DNA of 60,236 nucleotides, filler included, from Malassezia furfur (taxonomy: Eukaryota), in assembly GCA_052055015.1 (NCBI GenBank). It is 5 parts of 5 records of this genome, joined end to end, with 100 filler letters (N's around TTAATTAATTAA, not from the genome) between each part and the next. Parts side by side here need not be neighbours in the genome. Positions count along the whole stretch, not along the records: positions 48,362 to 60,236 come from JBQJIT010000350.1; 4 more parts are not named here. One strand, 5' to 3'. Each line of letters begins with the position of its first letter. The stretch's first letter is position 1. Below, piece after piece: positions 6,122-60,236 of the stretch. Below the pieces are notes generated by a model, which was not told the origin of the DNA, ran no database searches, and worked only from the letters and a program-made list of their open reading frames with translations. The position numbers and the translations under genes are program-made.

Positions 6122-7074
6122 CTACTCGACTCGGTCGTGCTCGACGTCCGCAAAGTGGCTGTCGTGCGCATCGTCGTCCAGTGCGATCGGCGCGTCGTGC
6201 TCCGTCAGCACCGAGTCGTCGCCCGTGTAGAGGAACGCATCGTACAGACCCACGCCCAGCACGCCGCCCACGATCGGCGCCAGCACAGGGCCAAACAGCC
6301 AGTACGCGCTGTCGCGCGTCCAGAGCTCCTTGCCGTAGCCCAGCAGCGTGAGCGCCAAACGGGGGCCCAAGTCGCGCGCCGGGTTCAGCGCATAGCCCGT
6401 GTTGTAGCCCAGCGCGGAGCCAATCGCCAGCACCGCGAAAAAGAGGCCGATCGGCATCGCCCCACGGCGCAGCGCCCAGTTGCCCTGGTCGCCCATCGCG
6501 GCCACGAGGAAAAGCAGCGTCGCGGTGCCGACCACCTCGGTCATGTACGCCGTCGAGCGCGCAATCAGCGCGCTGGGGAACGTGACAAACAGACCGGCCG
6601 TCGCTCGGGGGCCGAGGACGGTCCGTCCCGCACCCCCCTCGTACGCGGTGATGCTGTCATGATACAGCGCATACACAACGAATGCCGCAGCCATGCACCC
6701 AAGCACCTGCGCAACAATGTAGCTCAGCACCTTGCGCTCGGGGAAGCGGCGCAGCAACCGCATCGCGATCGTCACCGCGGGATTCAGGTGCGCACCCGAG
6801 ATCCCGCCGGCCGCCCAGCACCCCAGAGCGATACCGGCCGCCCACGCAATCCGGCACTGCAGATAGTTGCCTGGATCAGCCCATCGTCACCTACCAAACG
6901 CGCCGGCCATGCCGTGCTCTGCATAGTGCAGACGCACCTCACACTCGACGCCCGTGCCGAACAGGATCACCATAAACGCGCCCCAGAATTCACTGGCTTA
7001 GTGCACACTACGTACGCAAACTCTTCCTTGTACGCTTGGCGCACACGGTGCCAGCGGTGCAGCGCCGAGGCCAT
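6122..7074 (-). CDS. Aquaglyceroporin (MIP family, glycerol facilitator type); introns 6993-7015, 6871-6894
   Basis: Spliced: FAEFWGAFMVILFGTG...GGISGAHLNPAVT...NTGYALNPARDLGPRL. Two NPA boxes, the second NPARD as in glyceroporins. Confidence 0.93.
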
Positions 7075-7112: not shown

Positions 7113-8326
7113 CTACCACAGCTGCAGGTGGGCAATCGGGAGATAATACTGCGCCAGGGACCAGTACTGCCGCTTGACGCCGTTCCAGTCCTCGGCCTCG
7201 ACGCGCGGGCACAGCGTCTGCCACTCGGTCACGAGGCCAATCTCGCGCAGGTCCAGCTCGCTAACGCGCGTATACACCTCGTACAAGAACCGGTTCGTCG
7301 CCGCGAGGCCGTGGAAGAAGGAGAACCGCGCCTCGGGGCCCGACAGCACGTTGGGCAGGCACTCGAAAAAGGCGCGCAGGTCGTTGTAGTCTTGCGAATA
7401 GGTATCAAAGTAGATGGCATCAAACACCCCGAGCTTCATCGCAATCTCGCCGTCGGGGTCGTCTTGCGGCTGCAAAAATTCCTCCCACGTCCCTTCGAAG
7501 ATCTCCACGCCGGGCCGCTTGTCCCAGCCCTGCTCGCGCAGGAACCGCAGCGCGTCAGGGTGCGGCTCAATGATAACGTGCCGCCCCGGGCGGTACTTTT
7601 GGATCGCCTCGTCAATGATGCCGAGACCAAAGCCGACGTTGAGCACTGCAAAGCCCTCGTCCTGCCCTTCGCACAGCGCGCGCGCCGATGCGTGCATGAT
7701 CTCGTTCTCCCACTCGGCCATCACCATGTTGCGGTCTTTGTCCAGACACCGCCACTGCCCGCGCTCGTCCTTCTCGAACGTAAGCGGCGTCGCAAGGAAC
7801 GCGCGGTTGCTCGCACTCGCCTCGTTCTGCGTGCCAGGCACAAGCGTGAGCGATGCACCATTCGTCTGCTCGGTGAGCTCCGCGTGGTCCGCGGCCTGTG
7901 CCTCGTGCTCGGTCTCCGCATCGAGTTTGCGCTCAAGCAGGTTCGCCAAAAACGACTGCCGCACACCCTCTGTGGTGAGACGCGCCCCTACGCACCTTCG
8001 AGAAGCAGCATGTAGCACTCGGTCGCGTTGCGCGACCACGCCAGGTCGCCCGCCGTGTATTCAAGCCGATCGACGGCATTCCAAAGGCCACCGTAGCGCA
8101 GCAGCACACGCACAGTGTCGGCACTGCATGCATCGGCTGCATAGTGCAGGGCGTCCCAGCCTAGCGCTTCGTCGGCGTACCAAGCGTCGGCAGACCCGTC
8201 CCACGCGCCACCGTCATCATTCTTGTATTCAAGCAGCTGCTTGCACTGTGCGGCATCGCCCGCCGCAGCTGCGCGCAGCAGCTGCTCGTTGCGCTCCGTG
8301 CGGGCCGCCGGCCATGCGTCGTCCAT
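7113..8326 (-). CDS. RMT2: Protein arginine N-methyltransferase 2 (ankyrin repeat + GAMT-like SAM domain); intron 7970-7995
   Basis: Ankyrin-like LGWDALHYAA; VMAEWENEIM, VLNVGFGLGIID, IIEPHPD, FDAIYFDTY, FSFFHGL. Confidence 0.92.
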
Positions 8327-8372
8327 CGTCGCAAATTTTGGCCACGTGCGCCTTGCGTCCGGCGGCGATCGC

Positions 8373-10140
8373 ATGTCGCTCTTTGGATCGAGCAGCGCGA
8401 ACCCGGCGGGGGGGAGCAACCTCTCTCGCTCGGTATCGTTTGGCGGGCAAGAGAACAAGCCCACGTTCTCGTTTGGGAGCACCCAGCCCGCGCAAGGAAA
8501 CGCGGCGGGGGCGAAGCCGGCCTTGTTTGGCGCGTCCAGTACGCAGCCATCCCAGAGTACAGGCGGGCTGTTTGGCGCACAGAGCAACCAGCAGCCCGCG
8601 CAGGGCACGGGACTCTTTGGCCAGAACACGCAGCAGGGGCAGTCGGGCGGCATGTTCGGACAACAAAACAACCCACAACAGGGGCAGACAGGCGGAGGCC
8701 TGTTTGGAGCACAAAACAACACACAGCCAGGGCAGTCCGGCGGCCTGTTTGGCGCACAGAGCAACCAGCAGCAAGGACAGTCCGGCGGGCTGTTTGGTGC
8801 ACAGAGCAACCAGCAGCAAGGCCAGACCGGCGGGCTGTTTGGCACACAGAATAACCAGCAGGGCCAGTCTGGCGGCTTGTTTGGCACGCAGAACAACCAG
8901 CAGGGCCAGTCGGGCGGTCTGTTTGGCACCCAGAACAACCAACAGGGCCAGACCGGCGGCCTATTCGGTGCACAGAACAATGCTCAGCAGGGCCAGTCGG
9001 GTGGCCTGTTTGGTGCGCAGAACAATCAGCAAGGCCAGTCCGGTGGCCTGTTTGGNNNNNNNNNNNNNNNNNNNNNNNNNNNNNNNNNNNNNNNNNNNNN
9101 NNNNNNNNNNNNNNNNNNNNNNNNNNNNNNNNNNNNNNNNNGGTGGCCTGTTTGGTGCGCAGAACAATCAGCAAGGCCAGTCCGGTGGCCTGTTTGGAAC
9201 GCAGAACAATGCTCAGCAGGGCCAGTCCGGCGGCCTGTTCGGCGCGTCGCAGTCCAAGCCCAGCTTGTTTGGCCAGCCGAGCACTGGCACGTCGGCGCCC
9301 TCTGGTGGGCTGTTTGGGCAGTCGACCAGCAACACCCAGCCCGGCGCAGGGACGTCGGGCGGCCTGTTTGGCGCAAAGCCGGCGGGCGGCCTGTTCGGCG
9401 CGAGCACGGGCGGGATGGGTGCGCCCGGCGGCGCATCCGGCGGCCTGTTTGGTGCATCAACCACCGCGCAGCCCACACAGCCTACACAGGGCTTTATGCA
9501 GTTCCCCTACTACCAACGGGAGCGCTTCAACGAGCTGCCGGATACACAGCGCGCATTGCTCGAGGAGATGGACAAAGTGATCCAGACGCAGACGCAGATC
9601 AAGAACGAACTGCGTGCGCGCGACCAGACGAGCGAGCCGCGGCGGCTCCCCGCAGAGGTGCACGAGCTCAAGTCGCTGCAAGAGTCGATTGCCGCATCGC
9701 TCGAGTCGGACGTGCAGCGGCTGCAGACAATCAATGCGCGCGTTGAGCGCGACCGTATCGACCAGCTGCAGCTGCACCACGTTGCGGAGCACGCCAAGAG
9801 CAAGCTGAGCGACGGAAGCAGCTTTGTGGACTGGCTGCGCAGTTTCTACGAGCGTGCGGCGGACGAGGATGTGGCGCGCATCCATCGCTACCGCGTGACG
9901 ATGGAGCAGATCGAGCGCCACCTGCTCTCGCTCGACCAGCGCGAGCAGTTTGCGCCGCGGGTGATTGCCGAGATCATCTACGACCAGAATGCGTCGTTCA
10001 TGGGCTTTGCCGAGCAGATCGCCACGCTGCATGCCGAAATTGAAACACTCAAGAAGGATTATGTAAAATGGTACCAGGCCCGGTACCAGTCCGTGCGCGA
10101 CCCGTTCGCGCCGGGGGTGTCGGTGGCCGAGGGTGCGTAG
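8373..10140 (+). CDS. NUP49: GLFG nucleoporin, Nup49/Nup58-like; assembly gap 9056-9141 inside the repeats
   Basis: Many GGLFG repeats followed by a coiled coil starting RERFNELPDTQRALLEEMDKVIQ. The frame change falls within the N gap. Confidence 0.75.
8562..9453 (+). repeat. Coding tandem repeat of ~39-45-nt units (GGLFG[A/T]QNNQQGQS)
   Basis: Repeated ggcggcctgtttgg-like units; 56 nt on either side of the N gap are identical (9000-9055 = 9142-9197). Confidence 0.9.
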
Positions 10141-48361: not shown

Positions 48362-48546
48362 CGGCGCGGACGCTGCTGCACCGCACGGGGGGGCAGCGCG
48401 CCGGGCTGTACGGCGCCACGACGCCCGGGCGTACGCCGCGCACAGCGACGCGCGAAGACGCGGCGCGGCAGAGCCGCATCGGTGCACAGCGCTGGACCCC
48501 TGCGCCGAGCCCCGCGGCAAGCCCCGTGGTGCGTCGTGATCCGTAG
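48362..48546 (+). CDS. 3' end of a gene, possibly the ESS2/DGCR14 splicing factor
   Basis: Open frame ARTLLHRT...TPGRTP...RWTPAPSP...DP* ending at TAG 48544-48546. Family assignment is a weak resemblance only. Confidence 0.4.
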
Positions 48547-48560
48547 ACGGTCTATGCCAG

Positions 48561-49631
48561 CTAGATACCCCAAATCATGACCTTAGCATCCCAGCCGCCC
48601 GTCGCAACGGAGCCGCCCGTCGGACTCACCCGCACGCACGCGATCCGTGCGTCGTGGCCGCGCAGAACGCCGATGCGTTCGGAGCGGAGGGTATCCCAGA
48701 GCTGTGCGTCGTTGTCCTCCGAGGCGCTCACGAGCACACGCCCCGACTTGGAGAACGCGACGGACGTCACGCCTGCGTGGTCCGTGCCGTGCGAATAGTT
48801 GGCCAGCTCGCGGTTCGCCCGCATGTCGAACAGGCGGCTCGTCGCGTCGTCTGAGCCGGTCGCGATCGCGAAGCCGTCCGGAAAGTAGTCGACGGCATTC
48901 ACGTCGCGTGCGTGCCCCGCAAACATCTGCACGGGGTGTGTAGTGCGTGTGTCCCAGATAAAGGCGCGCGCATCGCACGAGCCAGACACAAAGAGGTGGG
49001 GGTCCTTGGGCGAGAGGGCGACGCTGGTGACGTCGCCCATGTGCCCGGTAAAGTGCCGTATGCGGCTCTCGGTCTCAATGTCCCACAGCGCACACGTCGC
49101 GTCGCCGGAGCCGGTGACCATCTCGCGGTCGCTGCGGAAGCGGCAGGCACTCACGTATGCCGTATGGCCGATCAGCTCGCGCGCGACGGGCACCTCGACG
49201 ACCGACTGTTTCCGCCGGAGGTCATACACGCTGCAGACGTTGTCGAGCCCACCGGAGGCGATGAGGTGCCCCGACGGCGCGTACGCACATGACATGACCC
49301 AATTCATGCGCAGCGTCACGGCCTGCACCTTGTGGCCGGTGTACGCATTCCACAAAATGAGGTGGCCGTCCTGCGATGCGGACAGCAGATGCAGGCCGTC
49401 TGAGGCCCAGTCGACCGCATACACCTTGGCATTCGGGCACCGGAGCACGTTGCGCCGTTTCAGCGCGAGCATGCGCAGCGACGGCACATTTGCAGCAGCC
49501 GCGCGTACTGTGTCAGGGGTCGACGTACATGTTGTATCAGATAGGCTTGCATTTCTGCTCTGAATTCGGTCCTTCAGCAGATCGGATTCGATCCGCGCAG
49601 CAGCAATCGCATCCTGCAGCGGGGCGGCCAT
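48561..49631 (-). CDS. GPB1: Heterotrimeric G-protein beta subunit; probable in-frame intron 49508-49528
   Basis: SASQDGHLILWNAYT, WVMSCAYAPSG, GGLDNVCSVY, TGSGDATCALWD, SGSCD, ATGSDDATSRLFD. Confidence 0.94.
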   Translation of the reverse strand: MAAPLQDAIAAARIESDLLKDRIQSRNASLSDTTCTSTPDTVRAAAANVPSLRMLALKRRNVLRCPNAKVYAVDWASDGLHLLSASQDGHLILWNAYTGHKVQAVTLRMNWVMSCAYAPSGHLIASGGLDNVCSVYDLRRKQSVVEVPVARELIGHTAYVSACRFRSDREMVTGSGDATCALWDIETESRIRHFTGHMGDVTSVALSPKDPHLFVSGSCDARAFIWDTRTTHPVQMFAGHARDVNAVDYFPDGFAIATGSDDATSRLFDMRANRELANYSHGTDHAGVTSVAFSKSGRVLVSASEDNDAQLWDTLRSERIGVLRGHDARIACVRVSPTGGSVATGGWDAKVMIWGI

Positions 49632-49714
49632 CGCCCAGGCAATGCACGACGCTCACGAGGCCGCGGAGTAGCGCCCACTTCGGCCGAACCCGCGCACGTC
49701 CGTCGGCCTCCACC

Positions 49715-52700
49715 ATGGCACTGCGCGGTGAGCCGCGCGCGCAGCGGCGGTCCGCGTTCGAGCACTTTGACGAGAGCCGCTGGCTCACGGGCGTGCGTGA
49801 GCGCCTCCGTACGGCGCTGTGGGAGCATGCCGAGCCACTCGATACGGTAGCGCCCCCCGCGCCCCCCGAGCACGACGACGTCCCCGAGGATCCACACGCC
49901 AAGGCGCATATGCAGCGCGCGTCGGACGCGATGCAGGAGCTGCTTGCGCTCGGTGGCATCGTCGATGAAGAGCACAATAGGCCTGTGCGTGTGGACGGCT
50001 TTGCAGAACGCGTATGGCGCGTCGATCAGCCGCCAGAGGAGTCGACACCCTCGTCGCTCTTCTCTGCATTCGACCGCGGGACCGGCGTCGACATTGATGC
50101 TTTGCTCCAGTTCCGTATGCAGGCGGCCGAGCGGGAGGAGGCACGAGCTGATGCGCCAAAGCCAAAAAAGCCGAAGCCTATGATTGAAGAGATTGGCTCG
50201 GATACGCGAGAGAGCGCGCGGGAGACGGAAGAAAGCAGCGAGAGCGAGGAGAGCGAGAGCGAGAGCGAAGAAAGCGAGGAGGGCGAGGAGGGCGAGGAGA
50301 GCGAGGAGAGCGAGGAGAGCAAGAGTGACGAGAGCGAAGAACGCGACGCAAGCGATGCGTACGACGAAGAGGACGAACTCGTCGACGACCAGGGACGTGG
50401 TGCATCTCAGGTTCAACCGGAAGCTGACGATACACATGTCCTTCCCGCCGCACATGACTCACCCTCCCACCATGCCGAAGGACCTTACGAGGACGACCAA
50501 GACGGCGAAGAGTACGGCTCCGAAGAAGAGGGCTACGATGACCATGACGAAGGCGAGTACAGCGAAGAGGCAGACGAGGACGATTTGGCGCCGACATCTA
50601 GCCACTATGATGCAGACGAGCCGCTGCATGACTCGGAATCCATGTACGACTCTGCGTCGTATCCGTCGGTGCCATCCACCGACCGCTTCATGATGCGTCC
50701 ATCGGCGCTTCTGTCGAAGCAGACCCATGCGCGCCCGTCGTATGCATCACACCGTGGGCAAGAAGACTCGCCAATCGTTGTACTTTCCGAGAGCGAGGAC
50801 GAGGAGCGCATCGACGAGGCAGCTCCTGATGACGAACGTGCCGAGTGGTCCGATGCGACGCAGCGTTCGGAGGAAGAGTTTACGGACGACTCGCATACAG
50901 AGGAAGACGACGAGGCAGAGGAAATGGGCGAGGAGGACGAGGAAGACGGGGCTCATGCGCCAATGCCAGAGCATTCCGATGAGGCGGAAGCGGCCTCTGA
51001 AGACGAGATGGACGATCCTGATGGACCACGTCCTGCCGGCGATGCAACCATGGAGACGGGCGAGACAGACGACGCCATGCGGGAAGATCATGGCGAAACA
51101 GTCGTGGCACAAGCGCCTGGGCCATCAGCGATGCAAGAGACAGGGACGGCTGCAGAAGACACCGCAGTAGACGCTGGAGCGGCGAAAGGCGGCCTAGACC
51201 CTGCCCATCCCCACAACACACTCGACGAAGACGAACGGGCCGGGGAGGACGTCCAAGACAGCGCCGAAGCTCATCCCCCGATGGAGGACGGTGCCGAACT
51301 GGACGCCAGGGAGGACACTGCCCCCGCGACTGACCCAGACAAGGAGGATGCCGAGGCTGTCTCGGATGCACGCACGGCTGCACCACATGAGGACCACGCC
51401 GAGAACCATCCCTCTTCGCCGATCCGCTTCTCGAAAGAGGCGCACGACGAGGCGCAACAAGCAGGACACTCTGCCGATACCTTTGCGCGCGAGTTGGCGT
51501 CCGAGATGGGATTGGAGATGCCACTGTCTATGCCTGAGGTGTCTGGCGCCATTGCCGAGGATGCATGGCCGTCGTTCGCCCATACGCTGCATACGGGAGC
51601 GCCGCTTTCGGCGCCGCTTTTGCTGGATGACGAGGGCCATCCACGCTTTGACATGTCGGCTCTGCTGCATGACGAATATGCAGAGGCCCACGGCCACGAA
51701 GGGTCTCACCGTATGCCGCTGCGGTACGGTGCGCTGCCTATGGACGATCGCGAGGCCGGCGAGGCAGCGGAGGAAGACAAACCAACCGAGGCACATCCAG
51801 ACAAGGCACCTACGGAGCTGGCTTCCCAGACAGTGAGCCGCGCATCCACACCGGCAGATGCCGAAGAGGACGGTGTGGCTGCATCAGAAGACGCCGAAGC
51901 CGCCGAGGAAGACGATGCAGGCGTCCCGGAGAGTGTGGACGCTGCCAACGATGCTGCCGGCGCGGCGGACGTCGTTCATGCTACCAACGACGATGTTCCT
52001 ACCAAGCAAGATGTAGAAACAGCCTCTGTCGACGGTGCAGTTCCCGCAGAACTGGGCACGGCCCAAAAGGAGGAGGCCGCGCAGTTGGACGCAGAGACCG
52101 CGGAGCGCCGCACCAATGTGGAGGCCCAGGACGAGGAAGGCCGTGCGCGACCCACCTCGCCGCGTGCTGTCGACGCCAAGTCGGATGAGGCGTCCCCCTC
52201 TTCGCGTGGAGATCACGGCCCAGATGTGGCTGAGCCCAACACCGAGTCCGAGATACCCCAGGACGGCGATCATTCCGCCGACCAAGTCGAGGCGGCACTG
52301 CCGAAACGCGGCGCCGTAACCACCTCGCAGGCCCATGCGGCACACACGAGCCGGCATGCGTCGGACGGCCCGATTACGCGGTCACACTGTACACTGCAGC
52401 GCGTCACTTTGCTGCGCGAAGCGGGCGCGCCGACGTTCCTGGTGCCGTCGTGCGCATTGGACACCGAGACGCTGGACGAGGAGGGCGCCGAGAAGCAGGA
52501 CCTATTTACCGACCAGCTCGAGATGATGCCGCTGGACCCTGGGGCGCTGCCCGAGCCAGTGTACCACGCGCTGTGTCGCATTGTGAGCCCGAGTTTGTTG
52601 GATGATGTGTATGTGACACCGAGCTCGCTGGGGGCGCAGTGGATGGCGCAGGACGATTCCGACACCGCGTCTGACAGTGCATCGCTGCACGATGACCAGG

Positions 52701-52972
52701 ACGTACCCCCCGCTCATGCGGTGCGCCAGACGTACAGCCGGCGCCACCGCCGTCCGCGCAAGTCGGACCCGAGCAGCGACGTGGCCAACTATGTACCCCC
52801 CGAGACGGCGCCGCACCGGCCCTCATCGCCTGCCGACGTCTCGATCGAGGAGCTCGAGGCGCTGGCGGAGCCGTCGCCCAAGCGTGCGCGCACGTCGGCG
52901 TCGCCGCCGCCACGGATGCAGCTGCGCACGGCGCGTGAGCGGCGGCGCACGCGGCGCTTCTCGCCCAGTTAA
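49715..52972 (+). CDS. Large acidic, probably disordered protein of unknown function
   Basis: 1085-codon ORF from CACCATGG; E/D-rich tracts; small folded-looking C-terminal block; basic NLS-like C-terminus. Confidence 0.75.
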   Translation: MALRGEPRAQRRSAFEHFDESRWLTGVRERLRTALWEHAEPLDTVAPPAPPEHDDVPEDPHAKAHMQRASDAMQELLALGGIVDEEHNRPVRVDGFAERVWRVDQPPEESTPSSLFSAFDRGTGVDIDALLQFRMQAAEREEARADAPKPKKPKPMIEEIGSDTRESARETEESSESEESESESEESEEGEEGEESEESEESKSDESEERDASDAYDEEDELVDDQGRGASQVQPEADDTHVLPAAHDSPSHHAEGPYEDDQDGEEYGSEEEGYDDHDEGEYSEEADEDDLAPTSSHYDADEPLHDSESMYDSASYPSVPSTDRFMMRPSALLSKQTHARPSYASHRGQEDSPIVVLSESEDEERIDEAAPDDERAEWSDATQRSEEEFTDDSHTEEDDEAEEMGEEDEEDGAHAPMPEHSDEAEAASEDEMDDPDGPRPAGDATMETGETDDAMREDHGETVVAQAPGPSAMQETGTAAEDTAVDAGAAKGGLDPAHPHNTLDEDERAGEDVQDSAEAHPPMEDGAELDAREDTAPATDPDKEDAEAVSDARTAAPHEDHAENHPSSPIRFSKEAHDEAQQAGHSADTFARELASEMGLEMPLSMPEVSGAIAEDAWPSFAHTLHTGAPLSAPLLLDDEGHPRFDMSALLHDEYAEAHGHEGSHRMPLRYGALPMDDREAGEAAEEDKPTEAHPDKAPTELASQTVSRASTPADAEEDGVAASEDAEAAEEDDAGVPESVDAANDAAGAADVVHATNDDVPTKQDVETASVDGAVPAELGTAQKEEAAQLDAETAERRTNVEAQDEEGRARPTSPRAVDAKSDEASPSSRGDHGPDVAEPNTESEIPQDGDHSADQVEAALPKRGAVTTSQAHAAHTSRHASDGPITRSHCTLQRVTLLREAGAPTFLVPSCALDTETLDEEGAEKQDLFTDQLEMMPLDPGALPEPVYHALCRIVSPSLLDDVYVTPSSLGAQWMAQDDSDTASDSASLHDDQDVPPAHAVRQTYSRRHRRPRKSDPSSDVANYVPPETAPHRPSSPADVSIEELEALAEPSPKRARTSASPPPRMQLRTARERRRTRRFSPS

Positions 52973-53009
52973 CTCGGTAGTGGTTAGTCAGCCCTCGACC
53001 CAGACGACC

Positions 53010-53618
53010 ATGACTTCGCTGTTGCGCCGCGCCGCGGCCCGGACGCCGCCCGTGCGGGCGGCGCGTATGTACAGCGCCCAGTCGCTTCCGCCCATGGAGG
53101 AAATCCGTGCGGAGCAGGAGCGGCGCGAGCAGGAGATCCGCGAGGCGGAGAGCGCCGTGGCGGCGCTCGGCTTCCCGGAGCAGGGCATCCTCCGGCAGCC
53201 GGTCGCGTGGGCGGACGTGGACCAGTTCCGCCATGTGAACAATGCGCACTACATCCGCTGGCTTGAGAATGGGCGCATGCACTGGCTTAAGCAGCTGTCG
53301 CGTAACCTGCCGCAGTCGTTGTACGAGGACATTGAGCAAGGCCGCAACATTGGCGTGATCCTCGCGACCAACTACTGCCGCTACCGTCGCCCGCTCAACT
53401 ACCCCGACACGGCGCTCGTCGGTACGGCGGTGCAGATGCCGCTCGAGCGCAACGACCGTTTCAAGACGCGCTCGGTGATCTACTCCGTGAACCAGCGTGC
53501 GGTGGTCGCCGACGGCGAGAACGACGTTGTGGCGTACGATTACAACAAGTTGCAGAAGACGCCGATGCCGCAGGCGCTGCGCGACGCGCTCGAGGCGTGG
53601 GCCTACCGTGGAAAATAG
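53010..53618 (+). CDS. Hot-dog-fold acyl-CoA thioesterase (4HBT-like), probably mitochondrial
   Basis: PVAWADVDQFRHVNNAHYIRWLENGR, YRRPLNYPD, VAYDY; Arg-rich N-terminus. Confidence 0.88.
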   Translation: MTSLLRRAAARTPPVRAARMYSAQSLPPMEEIRAEQERREQEIREAESAVAALGFPEQGILRQPVAWADVDQFRHVNNAHYIRWLENGRMHWLKQLSRNLPQSLYEDIEQGRNIGVILATNYCRYRRPLNYPDTALVGTAVQMPLERNDRFKTRSVIYSVNQRAVVADGENDVVAYDYNKLQKTPMPQALRDALEAWAYRGK

Positions 53619-53652
53619 GTTCATTACATACGTTTCAATGGGTATTGCTAAC

Positions 53653-55338
53653 TTACACCGAGATCGTCTTGAAAAAGTGGAAGCCGTCGGCGCTCGTGCT
53701 GCCGAGCATGCCGGGGATCTGCGGGTGCCAGTGCACCTCCTTGATCTCGGACGCGCCGTGGTGGCAGAAGAGCAGCTGGCTCGGCACGGGCTCGCCGTTC
53801 GGGCCCTTGGGCAGCTGCGACGCGTCTTCGTCCTCGTCGCGCTCCACGGCCAGGTCCCAGAGCGTCACCTGGTCGTCGCGGCCGCTGGCCGCAAAGATGC
53901 TGTCCTCCTCGCGGTTCCACTCCACCGAGCTGATCGGGCCCTGGTGCCATTCGAAGTGCGCGACGGGCGCCGCCTTTTGCTTTGCCTGGAAGTTGCGCAT
54001 GTCCCACACGTTCAGTGCGCCTTCGTCGCCGCCCGACAGCAGCAGGTACTGCGTACCGTGGTTCCAGCTGATCACGTTGACGTCCTGCGCGTGGGCCTCC
54101 TCGATGGCGAGTGCGGAGCGGCGCGACTTGACACGCACGTCCCAGATCCGGATGCTCCGGTCCGCCGAGCACGACGCAAACACGGTCGGCTCCGACGGGC
54201 TCCACTGCAGGTCCTCGACGCTGCTCGTGTGGCTCTCGAACGGCTGCGGGTTCGTGGTGAAGCCCGTGTTGTTGCTCGTGGTCAAGAAGATCTTGCTGTG
54301 AATGTCGCCAGTGACGAGGCGCAGGTGGCCGCCCTTGCTGCTCGAGCCGCCGCCCAGCAGACCGCCCCAGTCCATCGCATAGCCCTCGACACCACGGTGC
54401 GCCTCGACAGTGTACAACGGGGTGTGTGCGCGCTTCTTGTCAAACGTTGTGCCTGGGTTCTGCAGCACGTTGTACAGCGGCCGTGCGTCAAAGATGGGCA
54501 CTTTGCCCGTCTCAGACCAGACGGCCACCGGGTATGGGTCGAGGCACACCTCGAGGTCCGACGTCGGCGTCGACGTCGGTGCCGCACGCACGCGGTTCAC
54601 TGCACCGAGCGTCGGGATCGTGCGGTACTCGAGGACGGCGTCCTCATCGACGTCGTCGTCATCGTCATCGTCGTCGTCCGAGAGGTCTGTGGTCAGCATG
54701 CTCTTTCGTGCAAGGCGACGGCGTCCGCAGCAGGCTCAGTGGTAAAAAGTTAGGTAGCGAGTTTGTTTTCGGCATCGAGCAAGAGCTCATACAGCCAAAT
54801 GCCTCAAGGCATCCTCGCCGCCGCGGACGCTGTCGCTCCGGTACGTACCATCGTCCTTGGACGTGCGGTGCATGGAGCTGGCCTTCATCACCAGCACCTC
54901 GTTGTTCTTGGCGACGTCCGCCTGCGTGCCCGTGACCAGGTAGGCGGTGTGTGGGAATGCCTGGCGCTGGTTGCCCAGGTTGTCGCGCAGGAAGTCGAAC
55001 GACAGACACGGCCAGGTGACGTTCATGCGGTGCAGCATGTGGTATGCTGACTGGTCCGGCACGAGCGTCTGGCCCTCGGGCAGGGGCTTGCTGCCTGGCA
55101 TGTATGCCTCGGTCGGTGCGGGCTCCTCGTCGTCGTCGTCGCCAAGCTCCTGAATCTTGCCGTGGAGCGGCTGGCCGTCGATGTCCATGGTGTCTTCGTC
55201 GGCCGCGTCAACGACCTCACCCTCGTCGCTCTCGATCTCGTCCTCAAAGGGGTCCTCGAACTCCCCCATCTCATCGTCGTTCTCGACCTGCTTGCGCGCA
55301 GGCCGGTCCTCCGGCTCGGCCAACTCGCGCTTCGACAT
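53653..55338 (-). CDS. RRB1: Ribosome assembly WD40 protein Rrb1/GRWD1; one 162-nt intron 54687-54848
   Basis: [16 protein letters not shown]...[53 protein letters not shown]. Confidence 0.94.
54733..54819 (-). ncRNA. snR13: Intronic box C/D snoRNA, snR13/U15-type (guide for LSU rRNA AGCCAAAUGCCUC)
   Basis: C-like box AGGATGC (54809-54815), D box CTGA (54736-54739), 13-nt antisense GAGGCATTTGGCT (54793-54805), GCTACCT (54752-54758), ~20-bp flanking stem. Ends approximate. Confidence 0.8.
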
Positions 55339-55409
55339 GGTGCAAAGGCAAAGAGCCTGCCTCGCACGCTTTTCCGATTTTTCTTCCGGCCGGGCAAAAA
55401 AAAAGCGGC

Positions 55410-55416
55410 TGAGTCA
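55410..55416. promoter_or_regulatory. TGA(C/G)TCA Gcn4/AP-1 site (contains the Bas1-type TGACTC)
   Basis: TGAGTCA 37 nt upstream of the ADE5,7 ATG, next to an A9 tract. Confidence 0.5.
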
Positions 55417-55453
55417 GCGTGTCGGCGCCGCGGATGCACGGCCTGCCGCTACG

Positions 55454-57862
55454 ATGTCGTCCCTCCGTGCTCTCATTCTCGGCGCCGGTGGCCGCGAGCA
55501 TGCGCTGGCGCTGCACCTGCTGCGCTCCGACCGCGTGGAGCATGTGTACGTTGCGCCCGGCAATGGCGGCACCGCTGTGATGGGCGACCGCTGCTCGAAC
55601 GTCACGTCGCCGAAAGCGTCGGGCGACTTTAGTGCGATTGCACAGTGGGCGGTCGAGAACAACGTGAACCTCGTGGTGCCTGGCCCCGAGGCGCCGCTGG
55701 TCGAGGGTGTGGAGTTTGCGTTCCGCAAAGTGGGCATCCCCGTGTTCGGCCCGTCGCCCGTCGCGGCGCAGATGGAGGGCTCCAAGAAGTTTGCCAAGGA
55801 GTTTATGGACCGGCACAACATCCCCACGGCTGCGTTCCGCTCGTTCACGGCGTCGCAGGTGGACGAGTGCATGCGCTTCATTGCCGAGCTTGGCGGCGCC
55901 AAGAGCGTCGTGCTCAAGGCGAGCGGCCTGGCGGGCGGCAAAGGTGTTCTTCTGCCCGAGACCGAGGAGGAGGCCAAGGAGGGTGTCGAGGACCTCTTGG
56001 TGAAGAAGGTGTTTGGCGACGCGGGCGACGCGCTCGTGGTCGAGGAGCGCCTCGACGGCTCCGAGCTGTCCGTGCTAGCGTTCTCGGACGGGTACACGGT
56101 GCGTGCGCTGCCTGGCTGCCAGGACCACAAGCGCATCGGCGAGGGCGACACGGGCCTCAACACGGGCGGGATGGGCGCCTACTGCCCGACGCCCGATGGC
56201 ACAGCGCCCGGCATGGAGGAGCGCATCCGCAACGAGGTGCTGCTCCCGACGATTGCCGGCATGCGCAAGGACGGCTACCCGTTCGTGGGCATGCTGTTTG
56301 TCGGCCTGATGCTCACGTCCAAGGGCCCCAAGGTACTCGAGTACAATGTACGCTTCGGTGACCCCGAGACCGAGGCGGTGCTCGAGCTGCTCCAGCCGGC
56401 CGGCGCGCTCACCGACATCCTGATGGCGTGCGTGGAGCGCCGCTTGGACTGTGCGGAATTCTCCATCCTGCCCGGCTACGCGGTGAGCGTCGTGATTGCC
56501 AGCGGCGGCTACCCCGGCAAGTACGCGACGGGAGTCCCGATGACGATCGATACGCTGCCCAAGGGCGTCACCGTGTACCATGCCGGGACACGCCTCGAGA
56601 ACGACCAGTTGGTCACTGCGGGAGGGCGTGTCGTCGTGGTGAGCGCGACGGGTGAGACGCTCGAGGAGGCGCTGCAGCACGCGTACGACGGCGTGCGGTG
56701 CGTGCATTTTGACGGGATGGTGTACCGCCGCGACATTGCGCACCGCGCGCTGGCTGCCGCGAAGCAGCAGCGCGACGCCGGCCTGACGTATGCTGCGGCG
56801 GGCGTCGACATCGACGCCGGCAACGCGCTGGTGGAGCGAATCAAGCCGATGGCCAAGAGCACGCAGCGCACGGGGTGCGTGGGCCACCTCGGCGGGTTTG
56901 GCGGCGTGTTTGACCTGGCCGCGCTCCAGTACCGCGACCCGGTGCTGGTGAGCGGCACGGACGGCGTCGGCACGAAGCTGCGTGTTGCGCTCGACTACGG
57001 CAAGCACGACGCGATCGGCATCGACCTTGTGGCGATGTCGGTCAACGACCTGGTCGTGCAGGGTGCGCAGCCGCTCTACTTCCTCGACTACTTTGCGTGC
57101 TCCAAGCTCGATGTCGACACTGCTGCGCAGGTGATCTCGGGCGTCGCCGAGGGCTGTCGCCAGGCGGAGAGCGCGCTGATTGGCGGCGAGACCGCCGAGA
57201 TGCCCGGCATGTACGTGGGCGACGAGTACGACGTGGCGGGCTTTGCGGTCGGCGCCGTGGAGCGCTCAGCGATTCTGCCGCGCACCGACGTGATGCAGGC
57301 GGGCGACAAGCTGCTGGGTCTGCGCAGCAGCGGCGCGCACTCGAACGGCTACTCGCTGCTGCGCAAGTGTGTCGCGCGGGCGCAGGCGTCGCTCGATGCG
57401 CCGCCGCCGTGGGGCGCGCCCGGCTCGGTAGTGGCCGGTGTCGAGACGCCCACGACGCTCGGTGATGCGCTGCTTGCGCCGACGCGTATCTATGTGAAGC
57501 CGCTGGCGTTTGTGCTGCGCTCTACGGACCACGACGTGCTGGGTCTTGCACATATCACCGGCGGTGGCTTCACCGAGAACGTGCCGCGCATGCTGCCCAA
57601 GCACCTCGGTGCGCACATCGACCTCGGTGCGTGGGAGCGCCCGCCGCTGTTCCCGTGGGTGCAGCGTGCGGGCGGCGTTGCACCCGAGGAGATGGCGCGC
57701 ACGTTCAACAACGGCATCGGCATGGTGCTGGTGGTGCCTGCGGCGAAGGCGGACGCGGTGCTTGCGCAGCTGCGTGACGCCGGTGAAGATGCCGTGGCGA
57801 TGGGCGAGCTGACGTCGACGCCCGGCGTGTCCTATAGCGGCCTTGACGGCTGGCGTGTGTAG
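55454..57862 (+). CDS. ADE5,7: Bifunctional GAR synthetase / AIR synthetase
   Basis: [83 protein letters not shown]. Confidence 0.97.
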
Positions 57863-57980
57863 ACGCACACACAGGGGAAGCGGCAAACAGGCACGCGGCG
57901 CGCGTGCAGGCGCAGCACGCTGGGGTTCGGCCGATCCGCGTCGCGTACGTATCTCCACACGACGGTTCGGGGCATTGGCC

Positions 57981-60236
57981 ATGGTCTTCCGTGAGCCACC
58001 GATCGAGATGGACACGCTCACGTCGCATGTGCCTGAGGACGCGGTGCGCGACAAGCCGCCGAGTCCGACGTTCGTCACGACGGAGTTGGGTGTGTCGCCC
58101 AAGTCTGTGGCGCTCATGCGGAGCGGCATGGAGCGTTCGGGGTGGACGCTGTGGATGCTCACTGTGTGTGCCGGCCTGTCCGGCTCGCTGTTTGGTTACG
58201 ATACGGGCTACATGTGCGTGTGTGCTTGGCTGACGCAGCTCGTCCGTGCTTGTCAGCGTCGGCTCCGACCTCGGCCACCCGCTGACCGACTGGCAGAAGG
58301 AGATGGCGACGTCCTCGACGTCGCTCGGCGCGCTCATCGGCGCGCTGTTCGCGGGCTTCCCCTCGGACTGGTTTGGGCGCAAGGTAGTGATTGCGATCGC
58401 CAACGTTGTGTTTATTGTCGGCGCCGTCGTGCAGGCGGCCGCGCACAACATCGGGACGCTGATCGCCGGGCGCTTCGTTGTGGGCATCGGCGTGGGTGTC
58501 GCGAGTATGATTGTGCCCGTGTGGATCGGCGAGCTGGCGCCGACACACCTGCGTGGGCGCCTGGTGACGCTCAACGTGGCGTTCTTGACGCTCGGCCAGG
58601 TGATCGCGAACGGCGTCGGCGCCGGGTTCGTCGACGTGCACGGCGGCTGGCGGTACACGGTGGCCGGCGGCGCCGTCCCCGCGATTGTGTCGCTGATCAG
58701 CATGTCGTGGCTGCCCGAGTCGCCGCGGTTTGACGGGCGCAAGGGGCGCGTCGACAAGGTCGCGCGCACCTTCCGGCGCATCTTCCCCGACGCGAGCGAA
58801 GAGTACTGCCGCATGCGCGCCGAGGAGGTGTGCCGCAGCGTGCAAGAGGGCCCCGCGGACGGCAACGGTGTGCACCAGCACTCGCTGCGCACGCGGCTGC
58901 GCCTGCTGCTCACGGGACCGAACGCGCGTGCGCTGGCGATTGCCGCGGGGCTGCAGGCGCTGCAGCAGCTGTCCGGCTTCAACACGCTGATGTACTACAG
59001 CGCGACCATCTTTGAGAGCGTCGGGCTCAAGAGCCCGGTGGCCGTGTCGATGGTGGTGAGTGTGACCAACTTCCTCGGCACGCTCATTGCGTTCTGGTTC
59101 ATCGACATTGTCGGCCGGCGGCGCGCGATCATCTACACGGTGCCGATGATGAGCGCTGCGCTGGTGTTCTCGAGCATCTGCTTCTACTACGTGGTGCCCG
59201 GCACGCCGTCCAAGATCACGCCCGACATGCCGATCAACCACGTGTGGGCCGACCTGCTGATCGTGTCGTTCATCTTCTACGTGTTCTTCTATGCGCTGGG
59301 CCTCGGCAACGTGCCGTGGCAGCAGGGCGAGCTGTTCTCGATCGAGACGCGCGCGATCGCGACGAGCATCGCGACGGCGACCAACTGGGGGTGCAATCTG
59401 ATGATCAACGCGACCTACCTGTCGCTCAGCAACGCCATCACGCCGTCGGGCGCGTTTGGCTTCTACGCGGGGCTGTGTGCGCTCGGCGCGGTGCTGTGCA
59501 TCTTCGGCTTCCCCGACACGCGCCAGCTGTCGCTCGAGGAGGTGCACTACATCTTCCGGCACTCGTGGGGCATCCGCGAGGCCGACCGCCTGCGTGCCGA
59601 AAAGGCCGAGATCGCCGAGCGCGCGCGCGCGCGCGACCTCGACGCGGACGACACGCAGTCTGCGCTCGCCCTGTTCACGAGCGGCGCGCCGCGGCGGTGG
59701 CAGTCGGACGGGCACGCGACGCCGCGCCCGGCGGACCTGGACAAGGACGACGACGTGCGCATCGAGACGCGCTCCGTGCTCGAGACGCCCGACGCCAAGA
59801 TGCGCGTCGACCCGCTCGAGGCGTGGAGCGACGACGCGCCGCGCGCCTCGACGTCGACGTCGCGCATGAGCGGCAGCACGCCGGCGGCCATGCCGCTCCA
59901 GGTCCCGCCGAGCGCGCAGGAGGCGCCTGCGACGTCGCCGCCGCCCATCGAGCCGATGCGCCGCTCCATGTCGCTGCCGTACGGCGTGTCGCACGCCTCG
60001 TTCGAGGGCATCCGCCCGCCGCCCGTCGAGCTCGACGCGAGCACCAACCCACTGTCGCGCGCGGGTATCCGCGGGAGCTCGCTGATGCTGTTTGTGACGT
60101 GCTTTGCGAGTCTCGGCGTGTTCTTGTTCGGCTACGACCAGGGCGTGATGAGCGGCATTCTGACGCACCCCGCGTTCCTCGCCTACTTTGCGCACCCCAC
60201 CGCGTCGCAGATCGGCACCATGGTCGCGATCCTCGA
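57981..60236 (+). CDS. MFS sugar porter: complete ITR-like transporter fused in frame to the N-terminus of a second sugar porter; intron 58214-58238; runs off the window
   Basis: LFGYDTGYISSVL, DWFGRK, GELAP..LRGRL, PESPR, QQLSGFNTLMYY, GNVPWQQGELF, PDTRQLSLEEV, then no stop and SLGVFLFGYDQGVMSGIL...IGTMVAIL. Confidence 0.88.

Follow-up and report, generated by a model that had tools for sequence, protein, structure and literature searches.

The locus at the 3′ end of the DNA examined here raises the question of whether two sugar porters of Malassezia furfur are encoded in one reading frame and made as one protein. Fungal sugar porters are taken as 12-helix single units according to PMC5968117. 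The window, by which we mean the whole stretch of 60,236 nt (filler included), consists of five joined parts of assembly GCA_052055015.1, the last of which (48,362-60,236) comes from JBQJIT010000350.1. The initial annotation described a frame open from 58240 to the window end, and the translation of 58240-60234 is indeed a single stop-free frame of 665 residues. The Pfam model Sugar_tr covers residues 20-439 of this translation, matching the first porter (half 1) with E 1.9e-100, and a second stretch of the model starts close to the end, where the second porter (half 2) begins.

The gene lies on the plus strand. Exon 1 (57981-58213) encodes the cytosolic N-terminus and TM1 of half 1 with its GYDTG motif, and its translated N-terminus matches the M. 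yamatoensis gene model P0004. It is followed by a predicted 25-nt intron with a branch-like site (58214-58238), which was recovered by a control intron scan and whose retention would cause a frameshift with a stop near 58734. This intron is present in both copies of the region in this genome and absent from the raw DNA of three other lineages (L007, L010 and L011), where the frame runs uninterrupted through the same motif, which indicates a gain or loss within the genus. TM2 to TM12 of half 1, an inositol-transporter-like sugar porter, occupy 58239-59544, and a conserved helical C-terminal tail extends to 59637 (59545-59637), with no non-synonymous differences in 31 codons and a helix in the structural model of the relative P0007. 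The linker core (59638-59865) belongs to neither stand-alone parent and contains the first linker ATG at 59800. An M-x-G-x-x-P motif (59866-59895), which is probably the ancestral start of half 2 and a candidate internal start, is followed by the remaining Pro/Ser-rich linker (59896-60081), with an R-R-S-type motif and no hydrophobic segment. Half 2 opens with TM1 and part of TM2 (60082-60236), and the GYDQG signature reported earlier was found at 60130-60144. The linker had been put at about 160 residues; a long linker is present, and its length was revised to 179 codons from the end motif of half 1 to TM1 of half 2, or about 150 past the tail helix.

The window ends where contig C350 ends, and the remainder of half 2 was traced on two further contigs. 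C1794 overlaps the window end by 52 bases and continues the frame for 172 codons, with 169 of the 172 residues matching a second copy of the region; C1771 carries a further stop-free piece of half 2 of the window copy. No separate contig was found for the roughly 85 bases that separate these two pieces, nor for the 3′ end of the window copy. The second copy, 92% identical, lies on contig C175 of this 13.7 Mb genome, in which other genes are also doubled; doubled genes are likewise reported for hybrid M. furfur assemblies in PMC4634964. On C175, one stop-to-stop exon of 1,146 codons holds two complete sugar porters, and with exon 1 the product reaches about 1,220 residues. Sugar_tr gave two full matches (331.6 and 357.5 bits against a cut-off of 22.3), as had been anticipated for one open frame upon extension of the contig, and TIGR00879 gave two stretches (651.5 bits). 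The concern that the second domain might be only a short remnant is removed by the complete half 2 on C175 (L004 7589-5997, minus strand), located by contig search and with a full Pfam match. The doubled genome contains at least nine Sugar_tr matches.

Two adjacent genes could nevertheless share a frame by accident through GC-rich chance, or appear to do so through misassembly or annotation merging. High GC makes long open frames common, and in random DNA of local intergenic composition the chance of 179 open codons is 2.8%, so the window alone is only suggestive; the two other frames of the linker contain just 0-1 stops, gene spacing here goes down to 9-60 bases, and one database record of a fused protein, P0005, is chimeric. 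The strength of the case comes from the second copy and other species, which are also open: two separately assembled copies and three other lineages agree in raw DNA, and misassembly was rejected on this ground. Half 1 does not end in a stop codon. Comparison of the two copies gave dN/dS values of 0.042 for half 1, 0.195 for the linker and 0.044 for the C1794 part of half 2, with 0.185 for the linker core and 0.256 for 59866-60081. The linker has a GC3 of 0.97 (0.99 in the core), and its sole indel between copies is 3 bases long, in frame and within the core. In the 54 codons of 59638-59799, the differences at codon positions 1, 2 and 3 number 4, 3 and 15 (Fisher p=4e-4), a pattern from which we conclude that these codons are under purifying selection. 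This segment precedes every linker ATG and cannot be translated from an internal start, and is therefore read from half 1.

The earlier remark that the linker lacks an intron with the donor and branch consensus of this genome agrees with the scan of GT..AG pairs of 20-120 nt, in which 0 of 123 pairs in the window and 0 of 132 on C175 carried a branch-like site, whereas the same scan recovers the 5′ intron. A cryptic linker intron of this size range was rejected on this basis. The third-position bias and in-frame indel of the linker core, with no branch-bearing GT..AG pair, also argue against an accident or artefact, which is largely refuted and hardly credible to us. The fusion of two transporter genes in one frame, as first proposed, is thus supported at the DNA and evolutionary levels.

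The distribution of the fused form was examined by a protein search, in which the best 120 of 589 matches were considered. Among these, 22 clusters show 96-100% query coverage and 57-96% identity; 20 remain after the window's own cluster (P0003) and the chimeric P0005 are set aside. Over the first 300 columns of the alignment P0005 has 100% identity with P0022, after which it is nearer to P0002. The 20 include M. yamatoensis, M. vespertilionis, M. pachydermatis, M. cuniculi and Malassezia sp. CBS 17886, and, outside the genus, Pseudozyma flocculosa and Violaceomyces palustris, both Ustilaginomycetes. The records of P. flocculosa, Violaceomyces and the named Malassezia species are predicted gene models, compared here as proteins, and the erroneous joining of neighbouring genes is a recognised problem of Malassezia annotation (PMC4634964). 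In raw DNA, L007, L010 and L011 have intronless open frames of 1,154, 1,200 and 1,184 codons, respectively, and the same gene order as here, with ADE5,7 upstream and bHLH, haspin and L1-like genes downstream. At 50% identity, in a library of 1.84 billion, the fused family appears as one representative and one linker-spanning fragment. The ESM Atlas returned sugar porter clusters only, the first of which (1,198 residues, 75 members) may be the fused family.

The neighbours of the fused gene were also noted. The ADE5,7-type GARS-AIRS gene (55154-57862, plus strand) ends 118 bases upstream of the fusion ATG; the corresponding gap is 18 bases in L007, 326 in L010 and 60 in L011, which leaves hardly any promoter room in L007. 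On C175, a bHLH gene (Pfam HLH; L004:5129-5962, plus strand) is convergent with the 3′ end of the fusion. In this genome and in L007, L010 and L011, four lineages in all, it adjoins the fused gene; synteny extends over the wider block, so this may be mere gene order. Its basic region may resemble that of Ino2/Ino4-type inositol regulators.

The two halves carry the sugar porter signature in full. The halves were aligned to GlcP and STP10, and TM1 Asp, TM4 Arg, PESPR, GRR, TM10 Trp, TM11 Asn-Trp and the C-terminal PET-type motif were all found; of 35 motif positions checked in the two halves, 34 show no variation among the 23 fused sequences, a 23-row alignment whose counts still include the chimeric P0005. 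The TM1 motif of half 1 is present in 20 of the 23, the other three records being without exon 1. Contrary to the rule of one 12-helix unit per polypeptide in this family, two units stand in one frame. The linker is open in all 23 protein records, with a length of 136-240 residues; outside its own cluster its identity to the C175 copy is 30-66%, compared with 65-93% for the halves. A D-P-L-D/E-like motif occurs in 20/23 and an R-R-S-like motif in 19/23, and the variable core retains merely two invariant prolines. Taken together, these sequences indicate an old conserved fusion in Malassezia and two smut fungi that probably yields one double-size membrane protein.

Half 1 had been described as a full ITR-like porter, and this holds: it closes at 59544, its Sugar_tr match is complete, and it groups beside ITR-annotated proteins in the trees. 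It is 48-60% identical to stand-alone Agaricomycotina proteins among the matches listed, several of which are named myo-inositol transporters by their sources, the names being mostly transferred annotations. Half 1 resembles the fungal Itr1/Itr2 type (Cryptococcus group 1 in PMC2912663) in sequence and tree placement, as judged against relatives with such annotations; stand-alone myo-inositol transporters differ from the fused protein in being single units of 510-600 residues. Half 1 is thus a putative proton/myo-inositol-type porter, and inositol is its presumed substrate, going by the names of its relatives. Another porter, L091, may be a group-2 ITR-like protein, and for this reason half 1 is not claimed as the sole inositol porter. 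Two adjacent separate ITR-like genes also occur at L027:4605-6518 and 7269-8969 (plus strand) on an AT-rich, yeast-like contig, forming a tandem pair without fusion. Inositol auxotrophy was considered as a reason for the fusion and is not supported, because INO1-type genes are present twice as intact matches (n=2) in this genome.

Half 2 is 58-68% identical to stand-alone relatives among the matches listed, whose database names include "MFS monosaccharide transporter" and "sugar transport protein STP1". Half 2 belongs, together with A. niger An07g10370, whose motifs it also has, to an uncharacterised clade of fungal sugar porters, the members of which stand alone elsewhere. An07g10370 is expressed under all conditions listed in the PMC5968117 supplements, and no reliable functional test of any member of the clade was found in the literature examined. 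The TM5 residue of half 2 is Glu and its TM7 carries Ala-Gln, and because of these residues a pentose, glycerol or another polyol is proposed as its substrate; the TM5 Glu, as compared by eye, also occurs in NCU00821 and Xyp29, which belong to pentose/glycerol clade I of PMC5968117. Identity with the T. reesei glucose facilitator Stp1 was rejected, since by eye neither the Stp1 residues nor the kinship with HGT-1/-2 was found. The Stp1 residues are F50, Q179, Q314 and Q315 in PMC4642563, and STP1 is called an HGT-1/-2 homolog in PMC8290022. The 730-residue member of the clade entered as stp1_tree in supplement 1B of PMC5968117 does not, by eye, match the published T. reesei Stp1 residues and is possibly mislabelled. 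The C-terminal tail of half 2 comprises about 85 residues and contains an R-x-S-I-S-x-H-x-R motif (P0002 residues 1092-1100; L004 ~6130-6160, minus strand). Within a tail that otherwise varies, this motif is invariant in 23/23 fused sequences and is also found in stand-alone proteins of the Ustilaginomycotina; it is a possible regulatory site. Sugar sensors of the Snf3/Rgt2 type are characterised by a long C-tail for signalling together with lost transport.

The two halves are only 23% identical to each other, compared with 51-68% to separate stand-alone families, and a tandem duplication of one porter was rejected because of this low value. By this comparison, they are assigned to two different sugar porter subfamilies. 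In the half-1 tree, built from 182 of 183 rows after the fragment P0260 was dropped, the 23 fused half-1 sequences all group in a single clade (support 1.0) that contains no stand-alone protein; a 25-row IQ-TREE gave the fused half-1 clade support of 100/99. No stand-alone half 1 with a Ustilaginomycotina name was found in the best 120 of two shorter-protein searches, each scoring 8,000 candidates. Half 2 occurs as a separate protein in Ustilago, Sporisorium, Tilletia and Ceraceosorus, and the separate Ustilago/Sporisorium forms nest together with the fused proteins of P. flocculosa and Violaceomyces (100/99). A single clade of fused half-2 sequences was rejected by the AU test (p=0.0004, 20 rows), the tested group having been chosen after an earlier tree had shown the grouping. 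In the half-2 tree, Violaceomyces and not P. flocculosa joins Ustilago, contrary to taxonomy.

Because the fused half 1 is monophyletic and the stand-alone half 2 is nested among fused forms, the simplest account would be one fusion before the split of Malassezia and Ustilaginomycetes, followed by loss of half 1 in the Ustilago/Sporisorium line; by this phylogeny, the fusion is older than Malassezia. The claimed loss depends on absence from the best-120 lists, since U. maydis has two group-1 ITR homologs according to PMC2912663 that are unplaced here. For Exobasidiomycetes, loss as against never having had the fusion hinges on the class relationships, which are disputed according to PMC4634964. 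The stand-alone Ustilago/Sporisorium half-2 proteins (P0028, P0030-P0032, P0034 and P0035) have altered TM7 residues that are invariant in the fused forms, and these proteins have a longer stem branch; the TM7 changes hint at a new function after the loss of half 1.

The structure of the product was examined using an AlphaFold2 model of P0007 based on a 22-row alignment, with a mean pLDDT of 59 and a pTM of 0.43. Counting by hand gave 12 + 12 long helical segments, with residues 550-652 lacking structure, so that each unit shows the 12-helix MFS fold in a model whose mean pLDDT is just 59. Foldseek returned single 12-helix porters only, the best being GLUT3 with a TM-score of 0.81 over the target. 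A complex prediction of the two P0007 halves scored 0.00 and was counted neither for nor against. No 19-residue stretch of linker exceeds a hydropathy of 0.98 across the fused set, which argues for halves that face the same way: the linker should not cross the membrane and half 1 probably ends in the cytosol; therefore half 2 should be oriented likewise.

We consider it somewhat probable that the gene gives a single 24-helix protein of about 1,220 residues, in which the halves transport separately and a cytosolic tether couples their amount, location and turnover. A porter of the proton/myo-inositol type would then stand at the N-terminus of the chain and a sugar or polyol porter at its C-terminus. 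Most likely, each half would go through an alternating-access cycle independently of the other, and its TM1 Asp and TM4 Arg would serve proton coupling. The roles of these and the other signature residues are assumed to apply in both halves. The disordered linker would be a tether that fixes 1:1 amounts and places both halves under one promoter, one trafficking route and one turnover, and phosphorylation of its S/T-P and R-R-S motifs would perhaps tune the protein. The variable linker of Paracoccus NarK was concluded to be a tether in PMC5217062. For the Malassezia protein, the 14,595 characters of text available from the PMC5389616 proteogenomics supplement contain no peptide or gene-table match.

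The tether might instead be a route of communication, with the halves in contact or signalling via the linker and one of them gating, supplying or acting as sensor for the other, as a transporter plus sensor or as linked two-polyol uptake. The inositol porter and the orphan polyol or sugar porter would then form a coupled 24-helix unit under mutual control, one of them serving as sensor or gate. Such a unit would have been kept throughout Malassezia because, on skin poor in sugar, it links the uptake of precursors for the head group and for the backbone of phospholipids, and the orphan clade would have changed its function in smuts without the inositol half. The retention of the fusion in every full-length Malassezia-type record found is in keeping with this, as are the failure to find half 1 alone in the subphylum among the matches listed and the altered TM7 and longer branch of the Ustilago/Sporisorium half 2 after fission. 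NarK halves are interdependent (PMC5217062), and Cryptococcus Itr1 has been proposed as a sensor (PMC2912663). However, the linker is long, length-variable and predicted to be disordered, each half has a complete set of transport motifs, and in other fungi relatives of either half commonly occur on their own; we therefore regard such coupling as improbable. The same long, exposed, low-complexity linker with short conserved motifs would suit a polyprotein cut into two ordinary 12-helix porters. Its variable core, however, has no candidate cut site common to all sequences, and fungal porters are not known to be processed in the cytosol in this manner, which makes cleavage very improbable.

The intact chain of separately working halves is compatible with a second output, in which half 2 is also made alone, either through a shorter transcript or by initiation inside the frame, at 59866 or at a different ATG of the linker. 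The Met at 59866 sits at the stand-alone half-2 start position and survives in 13/23 fused sequences, from Malassezia to Violaceomyces and including both smuts, within a linker otherwise 30-66% identical, which is why half 2 may be made alone too. The motif lies 67-100 residues before the TM1 motif; in 11 stand-alone proteins the start lies 58-90 residues before it. Each linker contains a Met 39 or more residues ahead of the TM1 motif. That half 2 stands alone in the four genera named above also speaks for this possibility. Against it, the motif is without Met in 5/23 and missing in 5/23, as would be expected of a protein motif more than of a start codon. Upstream of 59866, third-position divergence is not reduced in bins 59560 and 59680 (9 per 40 codons, compared with 3-13 in half 1), although it drops to 2 in bin 59800. 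A purine is expected at −3 of a start codon; the base there is C at 59866 and G at 57981. Of the four internal ATGs proposed earlier, 59866 is the one that aligns with Met in other species; 59956 and 59968 are not Met in C175. Overall, a separate half-2 product is unlikely, though not strongly so.

The gene is already public as a hypothetical protein of about 1,200 residues whose architecture appears to be undescribed; no published description of this fungal fusion was found in the literature searched, which was mostly open-access. A natural fusion of two different subfamilies has here lasted across two fungal classes, and it supplies two of the small number of porter types seen in this genome. 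Malassezia has shed carbohydrate genes, as stated in PMC4634964. Fused forms, a stand-alone half 2 in close relatives and a stand-alone half 1 in mushrooms constitute natural controls with which the benefit of joining two MFS transporters can be tested directly, and half 2 offers a handle on a widespread uncharacterised porter clade.

The closest known system is Paracoccus NarK (NarK1-NarK2; PMC5217062), in which two different 12-helix MFS units likewise form one 24-helix chain with a variable linker and the Met that began the second unit can still be made out. The interdependence of the halves has been shown for NarK. NarK is bacterial and belongs to the nitrate/nitrite porter family; the Malassezia fusion is eukaryotic, its linker is 136-240 residues long, and its best-scoring families are sugar porter models, with no nitrate/nitrite porter membership found. 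Three longer sugar porter records with 4-7 stretches (P0259, P0283 and P0349) also occur in the database and may be merged gene models. As 24-helix sugar porters, the fused proteins are not unique, because tandem porters of about 900 residues exist in the database (P0329, P0341, P0352 and P0361), which also have two Sugar_tr units per chain. Unlike the Malassezia fusion, these have halves that are 31-39% identical and a very short joint, and the two of the four that were scanned scored best with bacterial GlcP/XylE models. The tandem porters are likely an independent duplication.
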